The translations under genes and the position numbers were made by a program. The notes under the pieces are model-generated. The model was not told the DNA's origin. It ran no database searches and saw only the letters and a list, made by a program, of their open reading frames with translations. A stretch of DNA of 64,000 nucleotides from Acidobacteriota bacterium (GTDB taxonomy: Bacteria; Acidobacteriota; UBA6911), in contig OY761556.1 of assembly GCA_963664705.1 (NCBI GenBank), forward strand, positions 2,240,001 through 2,304,000, read 5' to 3'. This document shows positions 556-11,261 of this stretch, piece after piece; the first letter of the stretch is position 1; every line of letters starts with the position of its first letter.

Positions 556-2994
556 CTAGGCTTTGCCGAGCGCCTTCAAAACAGAGTCCGGTGTGACCGG
601 ATAGCTGTCGACCCAGACCCCCAGCGCATTATGGACGGCAGGCACGAGCAGTGCCGGAACCACGGTGGCAACATCTTCTGCAATTCCGATGATTCCGTAC
701 GGGCCATATCCCATGCCGGTTTCAACGAGATCAGTGTTTACCGATCCGATGTCCTCGATTGTGGCGATTTTGTAATCCAGAAGGTTGCCGTTGAGCATGA
801 CACCGGTGGCCGGATCGTGAATCACCTCTTCGCTGCGGCCGCGTCCTACGGCCATATAGGTTCCGCCGTACTGCTGCCCCTCGCAGCCCTCCCAGCTCAC
901 GACTTTTCCCACGTCATTGACATTTACAACCTTGGTGACCTCAACCTCGCCTGTCTCCGGATCCACCTCGACTTCCATAAAGTGCGCCTGCCGGCACAGT
1001 CGCAGACGCTGGCTGGCATAGGCTCCCTGCTGCACTTGCCAACCGTAGGCAAAGAGCGGTTCCGTAAAGTTGCTCCGCTGGGCGCCCTTTCCCATTTCCG
1101 GCTGCGTGGTGATCGGCCCTTCGCCGCCGGCGGGCCCCACCAGTTCCGCGATCGTTTTTCGAATGGAGGGATCTTTCCTGACGAATATGATGCTGTCCTT
1201 GATGTCCAGGTCTTCCGGGGTCATTCCCGGAAAAACCGGAGGGAAGCTTCCCCGGATCGTCTGCCCCTGGGGTTTGGTGGCCAGCTCCAGAATTCTGCTG
1301 CGAAGAATTCTCGCGGCATTCCGGACGGCAAATCCGTTGACAGACATATTCGTGGAAGAGTCCGGGGTCATGGTAAAAAAGCCAGGATCCGTATGGGGAC
1401 GATAAAACACATCTTCCATTTTCAGCCCAAGCTCATCCGCGGCAATCTGGCAATAGGCTGTTTCAGCGTTTACACCGATATCGCATCGCATGCCCAGGAT
1501 GTTGGCGGTGCCGTCATTCCGCTCAATTCGTATCGCAATTTCACTCGATCCGGAAGAATCCTCCCACTCGTGAGTCCAGGCAAAAGCCATGCCGTGCATT
1601 TTTCCGTTCGGCAATCTTCTGGCGCCGGCGGCATGCCATTTGCCGTCCCAGTCGATTGCAGTCTTCCCTTTCTCCACACATTCCTGGAGACTGTCTCTGA
1701 CCTGGAATCCCATCGCGGCTTTCTGCTCATTCAGCCAATCTATGTCGTGCCCCTCGGCTCCGTCATTCTTGAGCGCAATCTCGACGGGATCCATCCCGAG
1801 AGCTTCCGCGACACGGTTGGTAATCAGCGTAAGCGTCAGGCAGTTTGAGTTCTGCTCACATCGAGTCGGAACATTGGGTCCTTTGTTCACCTGGATTGCT
1901 TCCAGCTTCGCGGCAATATTTTGAATTTTTGTATTTTCGCCAAGATGATGGAACGCGCCGAAAACGGGGAACCATTGATTGGCAACCATCGCTTTCCCCT
2001 CGACAGCGGTGATGGTTCCATCCTTTTGAAATCCCACTTTGATCCAATAGATTCCTTCGTCCATCTCGCCGCCGTAGAAATCTTCTCTGCGGTCGAACAC
2101 CCACTTCACCGGCCGGCCGGTGCGTTTGGCAATCATGGACGCACAGAAGTACGGTCCCATGTTCCACGAACAATGGCTCCAGCCGCCAAAGCTGGCTCCC
2201 TGATAAAGACAATGGACTTGGACTCGGTTCATAGGAACACCGGACCATTCCGAGATTGCCTTCTTGCTGATGAGCGGGTGCTGGTGTTTCAGCCAGAATT
2301 CAGGATATTCGCCGTTCCAGCGAACCACGCCACACGGCCGTTCCGGCCCCATCCAGGTATTGGCGGTGCGCGTCACTTTAAACTCGATCGTCTGATCCGC
2401 TTCGGAAAATCCGCGGACAACATCCCCGTGCTTTTCGACATCGAGGAATCCTTCGTTGTAATGATTCCCGTCCGGAGACATTTCGGGATTTGCCAATGGT
2501 GCGTCCCTCAGGGCTGCCTTCTCCGGATCAATCACAAAGGGCCTTTCGTCCCACTCAACCTCAATCAAGCTCAGCGCTTCATCCACAATTTGCTCGGTAT
2601 CCGCGGCAACCATGACCCCAACTTCCTCTCCCTGGAAGTAAGCGGTATCCGGCAGCACGGTAACCTGGTTCGGCACATGCCCACCCAGGTTGGCCAGTTT
2701 GGGAATCTCCGGATCATCGTAGCGCAGCACCGCGCGGACTCCTGGATAGGATTCGGCCTTACGGGTGTCCATGCTTCGAATCCTTGCACTCGGATAAGGA
2801 GAGGTGAGGAATTTGGCATGCAGCATTCCAGGGAGTTGCAGGTCAATTGTATACACGGCGCGTCCGCTTGCCTTTTCATAGCCATCCAGACGCCGGACTC
2901 CGCGTCGGCCTATGGCAGCGTAGTCCTGCAGCGGGAATTGGTCGGAATTCAGATTGTCCAGCGTTTCCGCGATCTTGCGCATTTCTTCGTTCAT
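556..2994 (-). CDS. xanthine dehydrogenase/aldehyde oxidoreductase family molybdopterin-binding subunit
   Basis: IGRRGVRRLDGYEKASGRAVY, LPGMLHAKFLTSPYPSARI, EVEVDPETGEVEV, EGQQYGG, NGNLLDYKI; start taken at ATG 2994 (MNEEMRK) with GGAG RBS. Confidence 0.88.
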   Translation of the reverse strand: MNEEMRKIAETLDNLNSDQFPLQDYAAIGRRGVRRLDGYEKASGRAVYTIDLQLPGMLHAKFLTSPYPSARIRSMDTRKAESYPGVRAVLRYDDPEIPKLANLGGHVPNQVTVLPDTAYFQGEEVGVMVAADTEQIVDEALSLIEVEWDERPFVIDPEKAALRDAPLANPEMSPDGNHYNEGFLDVEKHGDVVRGFSEADQTIEFKVTRTANTWMGPERPCGVVRWNGEYPEFWLKHQHPLISKKAISEWSGVPMNRVQVHCLYQGASFGGWSHCSWNMGPYFCASMIAKRTGRPVKWVFDRREDFYGGEMDEGIYWIKVGFQKDGTITAVEGKAMVANQWFPVFGAFHHLGENTKIQNIAAKLEAIQVNKGPNVPTRCEQNSNCLTLTLITNRVAEALGMDPVEIALKNDGAEGHDIDWLNEQKAAMGFQVRDSLQECVEKGKTAIDWDGKWHAAGARRLPNGKMHGMAFAWTHEWEDSSGSSEIAIRIERNDGTANILGMRCDIGVNAETAYCQIAADELGLKMEDVFYRPHTDPGFFTMTPDSSTNMSVNGFAVRNAARILRSRILELATKPQGQTIRGSFPPVFPGMTPEDLDIKDSIIFVRKDPSIRKTIAELVGPAGGEGPITTQPEMGKGAQRSNFTEPLFAYGWQVQQGAYASQRLRLCRQAHFMEVEVDPETGEVEVTKVVNVNDVGKVVSWEGCEGQQYGGTYMAVGRGRSEEVIHDPATGVMLNGNLLDYKIATIEDIGSVNTDLVETGMGYGPYGIIGIAEDVATVVPALLVPAVHNALGVWVDSYPVTPDSVLKALGKA

Positions 2995-3181
2995 TGGCTG
3001 CTCCGGATTTGTTGCCACAATATGACAAATGCCTTCGCAAATTCCACTGTATTCGTTATCCGCTTGAAATGGGAAAAGTCCCTGAGGCGATCGGATCGTC
3101 AAGGCATAAATCGTGAAATGCCTTTGACTTGGACCGGCGTCCATTTTAGCATTAGGGCACAGGTATAGGGAGGACAGGTGA

Positions 3182-3583
3182 ATGCCGCATAATGATAAAG
3201 ACGATTCGAAACAGACGGTTTCCAAAACGATCTCGCGCCGAGACTTCGCAAAAGGCTCGATGGCCGTGGTGGGGGCCTACTCCTCTTTTGCCCAGGAACC
3301 GCCTCCGCCTCTGTCCGATGCGGCCAAAGAAATAAAGCTCGAACTATCCGACGATGTGCAAAAGGTTCTAGATGAAAGGCACATCACCGAGGAGGATATC
3401 AAGCGGGTGATTGAAAATGCCGAGAGTACCGGGCTGAAGCTCTACCTGCCGGGAACGCAGAACTTCCTGTCAAAGCTGCGGATATACCAGGCATTGTTCT
3501 ATGTGGAGTATACGCTGGTGGAGAAGAATCGCTTTAAGGTTCATACGGCATATCTGCACCGATTCAAACTGGGGGAGGAATGA
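3182..3583 (+). CDS. small protein with Tat-like leader; domain resembles C-terminus of DVU_1558-like dicluster oxidoreductases
   Basis: SRRDFAK then short hydrophobic stretch; LDERHITEEDIKRVIENAESTGLKL..FYVEY..VHTAYLHRF resembles that C-terminal domain (from memory). Confidence 0.6.
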   Translation: MPHNDKDDSKQTVSKTISRRDFAKGSMAVVGAYSSFAQEPPPPLSDAAKEIKLELSDDVQKVLDERHITEEDIKRVIENAESTGLKLYLPGTQNFLSKLRIYQALFYVEYTLVEKNRFKVHTAYLHRFKLGEE

Positions 3584-3584
3584 C

Positions 3585-3770
3585 ATGGCCGACTGGTATT
3601 GCTTTCAGGATAAGGAGAAGATGGTCGAGGCCCAGGTAACCCTAAGCTATATGATGCTCTCGCAGAGAGTCCCTGGACTCAGATGCCCGGTTTGCGGCAC
3701 CGAGTATCTTACCGAAAAGACGGTCATGTCGATTGTGAAGGAAGCGGAAAACATACTCGAAGGAAAATAG
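3585..3770 (+). CDS. DVU_1557-like small zinc-ribbon/redox protein
   Basis: MADWYCFQD...LRCPVCGTEYL...EAENILEGK, 61 aa; GGAGG RBS; starts 1 nt after upstream stop. Confidence 0.7.
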   Translation: MADWYCFQDKEKMVEAQVTLSYMMLSQRVPGLRCPVCGTEYLTEKTVMSIVKEAENILEGK

Positions 3771-3779
3771 TCTCCACGC

Positions 3780-5093
3780 ATGGCCATTGCTCAAAACCAA
3801 ACCGAGAGCCTCTGTCCTTATTGCCTCCGGCAAATCGACGCGCGCAGAGTGCGCGACGAAGATTCCGTGTACCTGGAAAAATCGTGTCCCGAACACGGAG
3901 ACCTCGAAAGAGTTCTTGTCTGGAAAGATTCCCCCTGGCCTTATGAAGCATGGGACCGCGGAAGATCCAAACCGCACGCAACCGTCGCGCAATCTCAAAC
4001 GGATCCGTCCCAACTGCAGGGCTGCCCCCTCGATTGCGGAATCTGCAGCCGCCACGAACAAGCCACCTGCACGGCTATTATCGAAGTGACGCGGGAATGC
4101 AATCTGCAATGCCCGGTTTGCTTCGCCTCAGCGCCAACCGGAACCGGAGCAGGTCCGGATTTGTCCACAATCGAGGAAATGCTGATCACCGTGCGAACGA
4201 CGCGGGGAATTTGCCCTATTCAGCTCAGCGGGGGCGAACCGACGCTTCGGAATGATCTGCCTCAAATCGTGGAGCTTGCCCGAAAACTGGGATTCGATCA
4301 TATTCAAATCAACACCAACGGCATCCGCATTGCCCGGGATGAGTCATTCGCGCAATCACTCAAGGACGCAGGTGTCACCGATTTCTTTCTCCAGTTTGAC
4401 GGCCTGACCGACGATGTCTATGCACGGATTCGAGGCGCGCGACTTTTGACGGTCAAGCTTCAGGCTATCGAACGCTGCGCTCAACTAAAAGTGGGGGTCA
4501 TTCTCGTTCCAACCCTGGTCCGCGATGTCAATGACATGCAGATAGGACAAATCATCCAGTTTGCAAAAAAATGGATTCCCACGGTGAAGGGCGTCCACTT
4601 CCAGCCAATGACCTATTTGGGCCGGTACCCGGATTCACCCTGCAATAGCGAGCGTATCCTGATCCCGGAAATTCTGATAGCGATAGAGGAACAGACGGAG
4701 GGAGAGCTGCTCGCCGAAAATATGGTACCGCCTGGGTGAGAGGAGCCTCACTGCTCCTTTTCCGCCCTCTCCGTGCTGAGAGAAGATGGGATCCTGACGG
4801 CCACGACACGCTTTGACACTCCGGCGGGAGCAGTCTATTCCCACGAAAATGCTGCCGAGAAATCAAAGGACTATGTCCGCCGCCACTGGAGATATCACGA
4901 ACCCGCGCCCGACTCCCAAGACATCCTGGAAAGAGCCAAAAGTCACACTCTGTGCATTTCAGGCATGGCATTTCAGGATGCGTGGAATATTGACCTTGCG
5001 CGGCTCAGGCGCTGCTGTATTCACGTTGTTACGCCGCAAAAAAAAGTGATTCCCTTCTGCTCCTATTACCTAAATACCGGAGTCAGGCCCTGA
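3780..5093 (+). CDS. radical SAM (seleno)protein, TrsS-like; in-frame UGA at 4737-4739 read as Sec
   Basis: TESLCPYC..KSCPEHG, CPLDCGIC..H, CNLQCPVCF (CxxxCxxC), LSGGEPT; after PPG-UGA the frame continues EEPHCSFSAL...MAFQDAWNIDLARLRRCCIHVVT..IPFCSYYL. Confidence 0.85.
4740..4782 (+). promoter_or_regulatory. candidate bacterial SECIS hairpin(s) downstream of the UGA
   Basis: GAGGAGC-CUCACU-GCUCCUU immediately after UGA and CUCUC-CGUGCU-GAGAG about 30 nt downstream; which one is functional, if either, cannot be decided by eye. Confidence 0.4.
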
Positions 5094-5099
5094 AAAAAT

Positions 5100-6437
5100 A
5101 TGATTTATTTGGAGGGGTGGATCCGTCAGATTGTTGCACAGGTGTTGAACCGGACGGCTGTGGATCGTGCGGCCATCGATGCCTATCAATGTCTCCGGCT
5201 GCGCCAGACGCTGCGCTATGCCTATGAACGAAGCTCCTTTTACCGGCAGCATTTTAGCAGCGCCGGTGTCACTCCCGATGACATTCATGATATAAACGAT
5301 CTTTCCCGCCTGCCCTTTACGGAACCGGAGCATTTGGCCGCCTCGCCTTATCGGTTTCTTTGCATTTCCCAATCCGAAATTGCCCGCCCGCATGCTTTTG
5401 TTACCTCCGGTACAACGGGACCGCAAAAAAAAGTTTTCTGGAGCCAGCGCGATCTGGACCGGATTGTCGAGTTTATGGCTGCAGGCATTGCGACGGTTGC
5501 AGACGAAGAGGATGTTGTGCAGATCCTCCTTGCAGATGGACGCCCGTACAGCCAGGCGGATCTGCTGTACCGAGGCGTGCAAAGGCTTGGAGCCAACCCT
5601 GTGATCAGCGGTATGGATATTGGCTCGGATGAACAGCTGCGCATCCTCGAGGAGTCTCACGCGACGGTGCTCTTCGGATACACCCACCAGATCTTTCGCC
5701 TTTCAAAAGACCTTCAAAACAAAACGGACCTTGCCGCCAGGAAAGTAAAGGCGCTTTTCCTCGCCGGAGCTTACGTACCGCCATTGATGCGTCATGAACT
5801 GGAGCATATCTGGAATTGCCGGGTTCACACTCACTACGGATTGACCGAGATGGGATTGGGCGTAGCGGTCGAATGCGATGCGCATGCGGGGTATCACTTC
5901 AATGAAGCCGGCCTTCTTATCGAAGTTGTGAATCCGAAAACAGGGATTGCGGCAGCTCCCGGGGAAGAAGGAGAGCTTGTGTTTACAACGCTTGCCCGCG
6001 AAGCCATGCCGCTCATCCGCTACCGTACACGTGATCTGTCGCGAATACTCCCGGATCCGTGTCCGTGCGGCGCACACAGCCTGCAGCGAATCGACTATGT
6101 CCGCAAGCGGCTGGAATCCATGATTTCGCTTGGCGGGAAAGAAGAAATCTATCCAGCGCTGCTGGATGATGCGCTCTATGGGATTCCTGGCTTGGTGGAC
6201 TACCAGGCGGTGCTGATGCGGGGGGAGAGCCTGTCCCGGCTGAAAGTTACGGCGGATATGTTGTCGGAGAATGCCCATGCATCGGAACAGATCCGTATGC
6301 AGCTACAATCAATTCCGGCCATTGCCAGGAGCATGGCAGCCGGAAAACTGGCCCGTCCAGAGGTCTCTATTGCGGCTCCCGGCGCACTGAAATCAGCCGG
6401 TCGCGAGAAGAAGCTGATAATAGTCAACAGCCAATAG
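5100..6437 (+). CDS. phenylacetate-CoA ligase-like AMP-dependent ligase (DVU_1553-like)
   Basis: TSGTTGPQK, HYGLTEMG, GELVFTTLAREAMPLIRYRTRD, PCPCG. Confidence 0.85.
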   Translation: MIYLEGWIRQIVAQVLNRTAVDRAAIDAYQCLRLRQTLRYAYERSSFYRQHFSSAGVTPDDIHDINDLSRLPFTEPEHLAASPYRFLCISQSEIARPHAFVTSGTTGPQKKVFWSQRDLDRIVEFMAAGIATVADEEDVVQILLADGRPYSQADLLYRGVQRLGANPVISGMDIGSDEQLRILEESHATVLFGYTHQIFRLSKDLQNKTDLAARKVKALFLAGAYVPPLMRHELEHIWNCRVHTHYGLTEMGLGVAVECDAHAGYHFNEAGLLIEVVNPKTGIAAAPGEEGELVFTTLAREAMPLIRYRTRDLSRILPDPCPCGAHSLQRIDYVRKRLESMISLGGKEEIYPALLDDALYGIPGLVDYQAVLMRGESLSRLKVTADMLSENAHASEQIRMQLQSIPAIARSMAAGKLARPEVSIAAPGALKSAGREKKLIIVNSQ

Positions 6438-7112
6438 TCATCTTCGCCCCGTTACCGGGTGCGGATAGTGAAATGGGACAATCACGGCGTTCGGCCAGAA
6501 ACGAAATCCTCCCGGCTTCAGTTCATCCGGGCCGCGCGGGTCTTCCGGATACGTTCGGGTATACGGCGAAACCATCAGCAGGTCTACCGGAGAATGCGCC
6601 CAACCCTTGGCATATTCCGCCTGCCATACGAGGTTGTAATTAAAAACTTTTATCTTCCACACGCCATTTTCTTTTATATACGAATTCTCATAAACGCCCC
6701 CTTCCCAGAACTGGCTGGGTATGGGGGTATCCTCCAGCCGGGTTTCATGAACGCCACCAACCATGAAGCAGCGGAAGCGTGCCTTTGCCTTCAGCCGGTC
6801 TGAAGACACATCAATGATGTCCTGCGCCATCAGGTGCTCTGTCAGGACGCCATAGGATGGGCCGTTGATATCGAACCCGGAGCCCCACATCCTGCGCGCT
6901 CCTTTCTTTCCTTTGAAAATACCGTTCAGAAAATAAACCTCGCAATCCTCTGAGAACAAATCGACAACATCCGCAAAGAGCCATTTGTCGAAGTAATAAC
7001 CATATTTGAAATGGAGCGTGCGAATCGCCTGGATGTCCTCCAGCACGCCTGTGCGGTACATCAATTCAGCGACCTGTGCTTTCAAAGCGATAACTTCTTC
7101 CTCAACGGACAT
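6438..7112 (-). CDS. SnoaL-like / NTF2-fold protein (LdpA/LinA/BaiE-like lyase or dehydratase)
   Basis: LEDIQAIRTLHFKYGYYFD, GVYENSYIKENGVWKIK, PFHYPHPVTG. Confidence 0.8.
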   Translation of the reverse strand: MSVEEEVIALKAQVAELMYRTGVLEDIQAIRTLHFKYGYYFDKWLFADVVDLFSEDCEVYFLNGIFKGKKGARRMWGSGFDINGPSYGVLTEHLMAQDIIDVSSDRLKAKARFRCFMVGGVHETRLEDTPIPSQFWEGGVYENSYIKENGVWKIKVFNYNLVWQAEYAKGWAHSPVDLLMVSPYTRTYPEDPRGPDELKPGGFRFWPNAVIVPFHYPHPVTGRR

Positions 7113-8356: not shown

Positions 8357-9148
8357 ATGCCTGGAGGCAAAAAAGCTGAAAGCGAAGAAGTTGCTGCCAA
8401 GAAGACATTCTCGAGACGCGATTTTATTGTCACCGGTAGCACAATAGCAGCCGTTGACGCACTGATCGCAACAACTCCTGCAAAAGCCGCCATTCCCGCT
8501 GCCACGCCAGCCAAGGGGACCGCGCTTCCGGAATCCAAAGGTTATCTGATTTATGACAGCAAGAAGTGTGCGGGCTGCACCACCTGTATGCTTAGCTGCT
8601 CGCTGACACACTATGGAGTTCAGAGCTTATCGCTCTCGCGCATCCAGATCATTCAAGACTCCTTCGGCAAATTCCCCACCGATATCAAGATGGCCCCGTG
8701 CCGGCAGTGCAAAACGCCTCCCTGCGTCGAGAATTGCCCGGTCGGCGCTGCCTTTGTGGACACCAAAAACGGAAATATCCGGCGAATCGACAGCAAGAAA
8801 TGTATCGGCTGCCGAACCTGCCTGGCGATGTGTCCGCAACAGCCGCATCGGACCGTCTGGAACCATGTCGAAGGCAAGTCTTCCAAATGCGATCTTTGCC
8901 TGGATACTCCACACTGGAATGAAAAAGGCGGGCCAGGAGGAAAGCAGGCTTGCGTTGAATCCTGTCCGATGAAAGCCATCAAGTTTGTAGCCCAAATCCC
9001 GGATCAGACCGAGACCGATGGCTACGATGTCAATCTGCGAAATGATCACTGGCTGAATCTGGGCTTGGTCGAAAACAGCACGATTATTCCGCCGGCTATG
9101 GCGGCGCAGGCCAAAGCAAAGAAACCCGCACCGAAACCGAAGGAATAG
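8357..9148 (+). CDS. 4x[4Fe-4S] ferredoxin-like subunit with Tat signal (AorA/DmsB-like)
   Basis: SRRDF + Ala-rich leader; CAGCTTCMLSC, CRQC..PCVENCP, CIGCRTCLAMCP, KCDLC..ACVESCP. Confidence 0.9.
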   Translation: MPGGKKAESEEVAAKKTFSRRDFIVTGSTIAAVDALIATTPAKAAIPAATPAKGTALPESKGYLIYDSKKCAGCTTCMLSCSLTHYGVQSLSLSRIQIIQDSFGKFPTDIKMAPCRQCKTPPCVENCPVGAAFVDTKNGNIRRIDSKKCIGCRTCLAMCPQQPHRTVWNHVEGKSSKCDLCLDTPHWNEKGGPGGKQACVESCPMKAIKFVAQIPDQTETDGYDVNLRNDHWLNLGLVENSTIIPPAMAAQAKAKKPAPKPKE

Positions 9149-9161
9149 GGAGGAAGACATT

Positions 9162-11261
9162 ATGTCAGGCGGATATACCGGTAAAATTGCACGAGTCAAC
9201 CTTACCACGAAAACAATCAGTACGATCGAGACCGCGAAGTATGAGGAATTTGGCGGCGGGCATGGGATGGGTTCTGCCATCTTCTTCGACCTGGTCGGCG
9301 ACCAGCTCCCTTTTGAGGCCTTCGATCCCAGAAACCTGATCATCATGATGGCTTCCCCGTTCTCCGGCACATTCATGCCGGGCTCCGGCCGCTGCGAAGT
9401 GCAGGGGCTTGGACCGGGCCTCTATCCGGTTGAATGGTTTGGGCACAGCAACTTTGGCGGCAGATTCACCGCCCAGCTGAAGTTTGCCGGTTGGGATGGC
9501 ATCGTTGTTGAAGGTGCCTCCGACAAGCCAGTCTGGATCAATATCGCGGACGATAAAATCAAGATTGAAGATGCCAACGGGATCTGGGGCATGGACACCT
9601 ACGATGCGCAGCAGGAAATTTCGCGGCGCGTCATGCCCAACCTCAGATACGGCGAATGGGCAGAGCTTGCCAACAGCTGCTTCACCACGCAGATTCCTGC
9701 AGTTGTCACTTGCGGCCCGGCCGGAGAGAACCTGAGCCGAATCGCCGGTCTGCTGCACGGTCCCGGTTCGCAGGCTGCTCTTTGCGGATTCGGATCGGTG
9801 TTTGGATCCAAAAAGCTGAAAGCCATCAGCGCGATCGGAACCGGCGGGATACCCATTGCCGATCCGAAGGCGTTCATGGATGCCCGTCTGTGGTTCCGAC
9901 AGTTCCAGTGGGACGTCGACAACCCGCGCGAACCCGAGAAGTTTGCGGGCCGCGGCTACTCCCTGATCAACGGAGCTCCAAGCGGCGGCAACGTCAGCAA
10001 TGGCAGTCTTCCTCTTGTGCCCGCGCGCGCTGCCGCGTGCGCCTCTTGCCCAAGAGGTTGCCGTATGCGCCTGGCTTCGGCCGACAGCAATGAATCGGTT
10101 TGCGCAGGAAGCATGTTTGCGCGCATCGGCGGCGGCGGGTTTGGCATGGCTCCGGGTGGTGCCGGCGCCAATGCAATGCCTCAGGCACTCAGCGGAAAGC
10201 TGACCCGACAGGGCAACGATTTGATGCACCGCTATGGTCTGGGCCACTGGCAGTTGATGGCTACTCAAGGCTACATCCAGTTCCTGGAACGAGCGGGAGT
10301 CTTCGGGAAAGGAAAGGAAATCGATCCCGATCTGCCACCCGCCGGAACTTTCGCCTACTATGAAGCGCTCATGAGAAAGCTGTCGCTCCGTGAAGGCAAG
10401 TTCGGCCAACTGGCCGGCGAGGCCGCCGCGAGAATGGCGGAAAAGCTCGGTCGGTACAAAGAAGATGTGAACTCCGGCAACGTGAGATTGACCTACTGGG
10501 GAACGCAAGAACACTACTCCTCCCAGGTGGAAGTCGAATGGGGCTTCGGTTCGCTGCTCGGAGAACGCGACCTGATGCTGCACCAGATTGCCAACTATCC
10601 GCTTCACTGGATGGCGGCTTCCGGCGCACCATACCTGACTGCAGAAGAAGCTTCCAAGCTTTATGCGGAAGCCATGGTTCCATACAATGACGATCGGTAC
10701 CTCGTGGATTATGGCGAAGGCCCGACCGGAGTTTACTCCGATTCCAAGGTCAAGCAGGTTGCCTGGGTCAAGCACTACGAAAAATTCTGGGTTGGCGCCG
10801 GCGGCTTCTGCGGATGGAGATGGCCCCAGTGCATCACCAACAACACCGCCGACCGGAGAGGCGCCACGCCGCAGGCAGAACCCAGGTTCTGGAACGCGGT
10901 TACCGGCAAGAAAGGTACCTTCGGGGACTATATGGCACTCGGGCACAAGATCTACACTCTTGACCGCGCCATCTGGGTCCTGCAGGGACGGCATCGCAAT
11001 ATGGAAGTCTTCCCGGATTACGTTTATGACAAACCAGCCGGCGGCGGAAGCGAGCTGCCCATGGTCGTCGACGGTGTCTGGAAGTATGACGGCGGCCGCG
11101 GTCGGAAGCTGGATCGCGAAAAAGTCGAAGACTTCAAGACGCGGTTCTATAAATTCGAAGGATACAACTCCGAAAACGGGTATCCGACCAGAGCCACTCT
11201 CGAAAAGATGAATCTCAAGAAGGTGGCTGACCTGTTGCAAAGCAAAGGCAAACTCGGGTAA
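9162..11261 (+). CDS. aldehyde:ferredoxin oxidoreductase family (W/Mo bis-pterin) catalytic subunit
   Basis: GGYTGKIARVNLT, SNFGGRF..LKFAGWDGIVVEG, GPAGENL, FGSVFGSKKLKAI, CASCPRGC, GYPTRATLEKMNL. Confidence 0.9.
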   Translation: MSGGYTGKIARVNLTTKTISTIETAKYEEFGGGHGMGSAIFFDLVGDQLPFEAFDPRNLIIMMASPFSGTFMPGSGRCEVQGLGPGLYPVEWFGHSNFGGRFTAQLKFAGWDGIVVEGASDKPVWINIADDKIKIEDANGIWGMDTYDAQQEISRRVMPNLRYGEWAELANSCFTTQIPAVVTCGPAGENLSRIAGLLHGPGSQAALCGFGSVFGSKKLKAISAIGTGGIPIADPKAFMDARLWFRQFQWDVDNPREPEKFAGRGYSLINGAPSGGNVSNGSLPLVPARAAACASCPRGCRMRLASADSNESVCAGSMFARIGGGGFGMAPGGAGANAMPQALSGKLTRQGNDLMHRYGLGHWQLMATQGYIQFLERAGVFGKGKEIDPDLPPAGTFAYYEALMRKLSLREGKFGQLAGEAAARMAEKLGRYKEDVNSGNVRLTYWGTQEHYSSQVEVEWGFGSLLGERDLMLHQIANYPLHWMAASGAPYLTAEEASKLYAEAMVPYNDDRYLVDYGEGPTGVYSDSKVKQVAWVKHYEKFWVGAGGFCGWRWPQCITNNTADRRGATPQAEPRFWNAVTGKKGTFGDYMALGHKIYTLDRAIWVLQGRHRNMEVFPDYVYDKPAGGGSELPMVVDGVWKYDGGRGRKLDREKVEDFKTRFYKFEGYNSENGYPTRATLEKMNLKKVADLLQSKGKLG

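Follow-up and report, generated by a model that had tools for sequence, protein, structure and literature searches.

A TrsS-family radical SAM gene with an in-frame UGA, very likely read as selenocysteine, and its reduced gene cassette in an Acidobacteriota genome

The trsS locus and its neighbours

The window, a stretch of 64,000 nucleotides from the genome of an Acidobacteriota bacterium (contig OY761556.1; positions are those of the window unless a genome contig is named), carries on its forward strand at 3780..5093 a gene that runs in a single frame from an ATG at 3780 to a TGA at 5091-5093 and whose only internal stop is a TGA at 4737-4739. An earlier note, made without database searches, had taken this gene for a radical SAM selenoprotein hidden by the UGA, and its description of the reading frame stands: two ORFs of one frame, 3780-4739 (319 aa) and 4773-5093 (106 aa, with a GTG start), are parted solely by this triplet in the context NMVPPG*EEPHCSF, and the second half contains the motifs MAFQDAW, LRRCCIH and IPFC. 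If the UGA is read as selenocysteine (Sec320), the product comprises 437 residues. The trsS stretch is without differences in two public assemblies from one sample, which may themselves be the source of this DNA and so are not independent.

The read-through protein reaches 557.6 bits on the NCBIfam model NF045646, 'radical SAM (seleno)protein TrsS' (cut-off 490), covering model positions 2-432 of 441, or 552.3 bits when scored from the DNA; it scores 77.7 bits on the radical SAM model PF04055, and on the Tes model NF045702 its 364.3 bits fall under the cut-off of 450. The family name given in the note is borne out. The excerpted text of a 2026 review citing Haft & Tolstoy 2025 (PMC13188914) catalogues TrsS (NF045646), with one Sec for which it gives no motif, among the known prokaryotic selenoproteins; the note's reading was correct, but it describes nothing new, and one more selenoprotein contributes little where the family is already catalogued and reviewed. 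The Acidobacteriota form and its SECIS may likewise already be described in Haft & Tolstoy 2025 or its supplements. A literature search, in which PMC13274423 and PMC13326102 yielded nothing on TrsS, found no reaction for TrsS or for DVU1551-1558, in keeping with the note's remark that none is known. What is new here is a member of the family with a lineage-specific reduced cassette.

This cassette consists of four genes. The first encodes a 133-aa protein (3182..3583, forward strand) in which a twin-arginine-like leader precedes the ~86 C-terminal residues of the dicluster protein family NF045663. The second encodes a DVU_1557-type protein of 61 aa, similar to a zinc ribbon with four ligands (3585..3770, forward strand), that matches Pfam DUF7479 over cut-off and the YgiT finger model TIGR03831 with 21.5 bits (over 20.2), and reaches 38.8 bits on NF045645 (under the cut-off of 60). 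Then follow trsS and a DVU_1553-family AMP-dependent CoA ligase (PaaK-like; 5100..6437, forward strand; NF045666, 358 bits, cut-off 300). Further out lie a divergent xanthine-dehydrogenase-family (XDH) molybdopterin large subunit on the reverse strand (556..2994, the start being placed from orthologues) and, on the forward strand at 8357..11261, an Fe-S subunit with a twin-arginine-like leader together with an AOR-family (W/Mo) aldehyde ferredoxin oxidoreductase. The reduced four-gene cassette recurs in 17/17 close loci; an XDH-like or AOR gene stands near it in only 9/17. The TGA that ends trsS is in frame with the ATG of the ligase (5091-5100), and natural TrsS-ligase fusions exist. Read-through of this final TGA at 5091 into the ligase was considered and rejected: an in-frame continuation is found in only 4 of the 17 close loci with a ligase gene, and the stop codons are mixed.

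The wider family neighbourhood was surveyed in 70 loci of at least 7 kb, which include the window and the locus of a paralogue in the same genome and some of which are cut by contig ends; one representative of each neighbourhood cluster was checked against NCBIfam. The AMP ligase is present in 67 of these loci, the dicluster protein or its tail in 63, DVU_1557 in 63, C-GCAxxG-C-C in 48, a DVU_1556-type methyltransferase in 48, Mop/XDH in 46, MocA-like in 40, XdhC in 35 and a phosphatase in 35. The methyltransferase beside 9/17 close loci had clustered with DVU_1556, but by sequence reading it is a convergent ArsM-like gene, so that the DVU_1556-type count is 48 and not 57 of 70; this ArsM-like gene follows the cassette at L032:10773-11606 and at eight other close loci and is absent at the window. 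Two usual members of the cluster, the DVU_1556 methyltransferase and the DVU_1551 NTP transferase, have no over-cut-off match in our genome. Fusions of TrsS were looked at in 12 long hits picked from 150: 4 join it to an AMP ligase, 3 each to a methyltransferase and to a MocA-like transferase, and 2 to DUF5714; some of these long fusions could be assembly artefacts. The TrsS gene cluster is widespread in anaerobes, and DVU_1559 is listed as an aldehyde oxidoreductase in the consulted portion of a D. vulgaris proteomics study (PMC10920352).

The in-frame UGA, its hairpin and the selenocysteine machinery

Homologues were aligned at the UGA codon, as the note had proposed. From 108 loci, 103 aligned over position 320 and 85 of these were distinct; once three Tes-like rows had been set aside, the column of the remaining 82 held Cys in 54, TGA in 20 and another residue in eight (Ala 3, Ser 2, Arg 2, Gly 1), in agreement with the cysteine that the note gives for homologues. 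Among more distant representatives 138/150 could be aligned at this position and 73/138 have Cys; judged from these alignments, position 320 is not essential family-wide. The two arginines belong to L054 and L107. Tandem pairs of TrsS-like genes were seen at L031:6558-9340 and L054:7724-10370. That standard gene callers split such genes, as the note had warned, is seen in 2/150 database representatives, which stop at ...PPG.

In the genus, an over-cut-off TrsS is found in 24/25 genomes and a form with exactly one TGA in 18/25, a recurrence beyond chance; 8 of the 18 TGA-form genomes have an uninterrupted TrsS paralogue as well. In the genome of the window a Cys TrsS lies in a fuller Mop operon elsewhere. 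The named close relatives are Acidobacteriota. A quick maximum-likelihood tree of 78 rows places the window's gene with 19 Acidobacteriota records on one branch (SH-aLRT 100) of 20 rows, 17 with Sec and 3 with Cys, the three Cys rows forming a single sub-branch. A further TGA row outside this branch, L034, comes from a Thermodesulfobacteriota genome in which selA is present.

Selection does not stop at the UGA. Over 18 pairs of the window's trsS and its relatives the median pN/pS is 0.35 upstream of the UGA and 0.31 downstream, and the sequence after the UGA is constrained equally to the part before it; pS against the same 18 relatives is ~0.7-0.8, synonymous sites being ~70-80% diverged. Against this saturated background a predicted SECIS upper stem-loop stands out at 4767..4782 (forward strand), with a 5-bp stem and a 6-nt loop that has G at loop position 2 and then U. 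Its loop lies 32 nt past the UGA, and for the extended hairpin 4760-4791 the folding energy is -7.8 kcal/mol; the hairpin thereby satisfies all four constraints (loop size, G in the loop, spacing and energy) of the SECIS consensus taken from the excerpted review (PMC13188914). The 16-nt hairpin is present in 19/19 close TGA genes and in 0/62 non-TGA genes, the three closest Cys genes included, and it is absent from one TGA homologue, L034. In the 19 genes only 4 of 63 amino-acid-invariant columns of 4-6-fold degeneracy are also invariant in their codons, and all four lie inside the hairpin, a freeze that is as expected for a SECIS while synonymous sites elsewhere are saturated, and that narrows the element to 16 nucleotides. 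The 19 close genes are kin and represent one lineage's history, not 19 independent events, and the stem shows invariance only, with no covariation.

The note had also pointed to hairpins after the UGA, and this claim holds for 4767-4782, which is conserved together with the TGA, but not for folding energy as such. The energy downstream of the UGA is not unusual in any of five windows (z -0.6 to +1.0), and a loose SECIS model is met by 25/150 random TGA sites of the same genome; energy was consequently dropped as evidence, and we judge the hairpin to be real from its conservation. An Rfam search of 3000-6600 returned no match, and promoter and terminator scans gave results at chance level.

The note had implied a selenocysteine machinery elsewhere in the genome, and two copies each of selA, selB, selD and tRNA-Sec were found, one selD having a TGA of its own. 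One set is compact (genome G000, contig C1:3072600-3079100) and the other scattered (C1: 3461774, 3657373, 2046792 and 6559014). The compact cluster holds selB, selA, a Cys-type selD with extra N- and C-terminal parts, tRNA-Sec and a TGA-bearing ArsM-like gene, and adjoins corrinoid and methyltransferase genes; a second selA occurs in 4/24 relatives and a second selB in 2/24, and the two SelBs might recognise different SECIS types. Among the 25 genomes of the genus, 23 contain selA and 24 contain selB, and all 18 TGA-form genomes have both. The close Cys form occurs in three genomes, of which two show selA along with selB; the third, 76% complete, has selB, and no selA was seen in it. A genome-wide self-search for Cys/TGA pairs returned mostly noise outside coding frames, and only matches recognised by motif were used. 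They give further likely Sec codons at C1: 4604377 (-), 4401710 (-), 3819864 (-), 45074 (-), 2046822 (+) and 3078482 (-), in genes that we take by their motifs to be MetE-like, formate dehydrogenase, two MvhD-like, SelD and ArsM-like. The hairpin loop of the MetE-like gene is much like that of trsS.

Two other readings of the UGA have to be weighed. That it is a nonsense mutation, leaving a pseudogene or two separate proteins, could appeal to the intact Cys paralogue in the same genome (G000:203683), which could supply the function, and to the GTG at 4773 as a second start. Yet no purine-rich ribosome site precedes this GTG, a split would exclude the invariant C325, selection after the stop equals that before it, the TGA occupies the same codon position in 19 genes so diverged that their synonymous sites are saturated, the hairpin co-occurs with the TGA, and the genome has Sec machinery; the nonsense reading is exceedingly improbable and already largely refuted. 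That an unusual tRNA or code inserts Cys or Trp at the UGA in place of Sec is scarcely more credible. This reading might draw on three tRNA-Cys genes in the genome and on a third element called by ARAGORN, 72 nt long and tRNA-like, with a UCA triplet (C1:1625651-1625722, reverse strand), but the triplet of this element sits in a 6-nt loop, its acceptor stem is mismatched and it falls outside the Rfam tRNA-Sec matches. The element lies between what we take to be an RtcR-like activator and SPFH/RtcA-like genes and is likely a tRNA-like RNA of an rtc operon. Two good tRNA-Sec genes are at hand in the genome, and both trsS and neighbouring genes end in TGA as their ordinary stop.

The preferred reading is that 3780-5093 is a single gene for a TrsS member and that its UGA is very likely decoded as selenocysteine; with much the same confidence, judging from the sequence, insertion at 4737-4739 would be SelB-dependent. 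SelB would bind the hairpin at 4767-4782 and deliver Sec-tRNA to the UGA.

Structure, partner proteins and possible roles of TrsS

The closest solved protein to TrsS is GDGT-MAS/Tes (E 7e-87). An AlphaFold2 model of TrsS (pLDDT 86.5) matches the Tes structure 7TOM with Z 43.7 and an rmsd of 2.3 A over 398 residues; the next-best fold is that of MoaA (Z 22). In Tes, according to the consulted portion of Lloyd et al. (PMC9433317), a rubredoxin iron is combined with an N-terminal cluster, a radical SAM cluster and a C-terminal cluster, and the last has a labile Met439 and captures the substrate radical via an S-C bond. TrsS has a rubredoxin-type site at C12/C15/C36/H39, N-terminal cluster ligands at C82/C86/C89/H92 and the radical SAM motif CX3CX2C at C107/C111/C114, which is found in 76/76 rows and with which the fold agrees, including its partial TIM barrel; each of the Tes metal-ligand positions is retained in 74-76 of the 76 TrsS rows. 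For the C-terminal cluster we infer the ligands C325/C412/C427/M396, the three cysteines being common to TrsS and both Tes sequences. The helical insert, part of which is missing from TrsS, would form the second lipid pocket of Tes. Sec320 lies at the junction of a deletion, five residues before the invariant C325 and at the site where Tes has a 20-residue segment, a position that makes it a likely reactive helper by the pocket; since about half of the distant members have no Cys at 320, a structural ligand is unlikely at this residue.

Of the small proteins encoded upstream, the domain of the 133-aa protein was modelled as well. This model (pLDDT 93.9) finds its best structure matches among RelE/BrnT/MqsR-type proteins (Z 7.4, rmsd 3.4 A, 78 residues aligned, where the tool calls a Z of 8 reliable); most of its top matches belong to this fold class, MqsR itself with Z 5.4, at identities of 7-18%. 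Pfam DUF4258 is found in 1/14 of these proteins, under cut-off (E 6e-4), and PDB sequence searches with the profiles of both small proteins gave nothing informative. In predicted fold, the pair of 133-aa and 61-aa proteins resembles MqsR with the finger of MqsA. A [ST]RR[DEK]F motif marks the leader in 16/17 close loci; the hydrophobic stretch of the leader is short, and no Tat model was over cut-off on the 133-aa proteins (best Pfam E 0.3 in 1/14; none in NCBIfam).

By extension from Tes, TrsS would carry three [4Fe-4S] clusters and a rubredoxin-type iron, cleavage of SAM would yield a 5'-deoxyadenosyl radical, and the substrate radical would be trapped at the C-terminal cluster, with Sec320 acting as a reactive helper thiol or selenol by the pocket and not as a structural ligand. 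What TrsS makes can be put forward only tentatively: the adjoining AMP ligase may activate a small acid on which the enzyme then builds a C-S or C-C bond, with electrons from Mo/W aldehyde oxidoreductases passed on via the two small upstream proteins, the substrate being a guess from gene context only.

Three other roles compete with this proposal. TrsS might tailor or mature the molybdopterin cofactor or the metal site of Mop/XDH-family enzymes, which we consider rather unlikely. Mop/XDH, MocA-like and XdhC genes are frequent neighbours (46, 40 and 35 of the 70 loci), 3/12 long hits join TrsS to a MocA-like transferase, and the genome holds 21 XDH-family molybdopterin matches; against this, the Sec cassette is without MocA or XdhC in 17/17 close loci, and the Mop of the cluster is the crystallised Desulfovibrio aldehyde oxidoreductase, whose cofactor we take to be ordinary MCD. 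For Tes itself, the claim of a pterin methylase could not be corroborated (PMC9433317). A protein substrate, namely a cross-link or thioether in a small upstream product, possibly made before Tat export, appears improbable: it would fit the presence of both small genes with trsS in 63/70 loci, also in those that have lost the remainder of the dicluster protein, and the twin-arginine motif of 16/17 close loci, but it leaves the AMP ligase without a role, and neither the Tat models nor the short hydrophobic stretch of the leader speak for export.

That TrsS is a Tes-like enzyme of lipid C-C coupling, for instance for the branched GDGT lipids of Acidobacteria, is more doubtful still. The fold and ligands are the same as in Tes, the adjoining ligase could activate a fatty acid, and bacterial Tes homologues in general have been proposed as brGDGT synthases, as an excerpt of PMC8941075 has it. 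Yet TrsS stays at 364.3 bits where the Tes cut-off is 450, and the genome has a separate, true Tes over that cut-off (C1:2012421-2013860; NF045702, 552.1 bits). TrsS also lacks the 20-residue segment after PVP/PPG and much of the helical insert found in both Tes, Tyr459 of Tes is Val416 in TrsS, and the surrounding genes are those of redox enzymes and not of lipids. A more distant Tes-like gene lies at C1:773503-774909, and both it and the true Tes are relevant to the origins of branched GDGTs.

We note a bolder reading as well, which we regard as a long shot. TrsS would be derived from Tes with loss of the lipid pocket, and Sec320 (Cys elsewhere), beside the C-terminal cluster, would trap the substrate radical covalently; its partners would be a domesticated pair with RelE-like and zinc-ribbon toxin-antitoxin folds that serves as an electron-docking or substrate module, equipped with a twin-arginine leader in this Acidobacteriota lineage. 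If true, this would amount to radical capture by a selenol and to the metabolic reuse of an MqsR/MqsA-like pair. One genome unites TrsS in its Sec and Cys forms with a true Tes, a clean test case in which residue 320 and the difference between TrsS and Tes can be compared side by side. There is also a warning here: TrsS will turn up when lipid-biomarker genes are sought with loose criteria among bacterial "Tes homologues".

Comparison with known systems

With bacterial selenocysteine insertion the locus shares a consensus hairpin after the UGA and the presence of selA, selB, selC and selD. It differs in spacing, the loop of trsS lying 32 nt from the UGA compared with 18-27 nt in the six other Sec genes of this genome, and in that the genome holds two sets of sel genes.

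The D. vulgaris neighbourhood DVU_1551-DVU_1559 is recognisable in the over-cut-off DVU_1553 ligase, the DVU_1557-type gene and the NF045663 tail. In contrast to it, the window has of the dicluster protein just its final domain, placed behind a twin-arginine-like leader, and its locus is without DVU_1555, DVU_1556, MocA, XdhC and phosphatase.

Tes/GDGT-MAS (MJ0619; PDB 7TOL, 7TOM; NF045702) has the same fold as TrsS (Z 43.7), with 38% identity over 398 residues. The rubredoxin site, N-terminal cluster ligands and radical SAM motif are likewise the same, Met396 of TrsS corresponds to Met439 of Tes, and three cysteines of TrsS are placed for the C-terminal cluster. TrsS differs in being ~70 residues shorter, with the segment behind PVP/PPG and some of the helical insert missing, in the replacement of Tyr459 by valine, in its extra conserved Cys/Sec positions 97, 233, 320 and 413, and in its redox-gene context and its score under the Tes cut-off.

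The two small upstream genes, finally, resemble MqsR/MqsA and the DUF4258 plus YgiT-finger pairs of toxin-antitoxin type in their order, a domain whose predicted fold may be RelE-like being followed by a YgiT-type finger. The 61-aa finger encoded at the window differs from these pairs in having no DNA-binding domain, and the domain before it differs in being, in most loci, the tail of a flavo-Fe-S protein.
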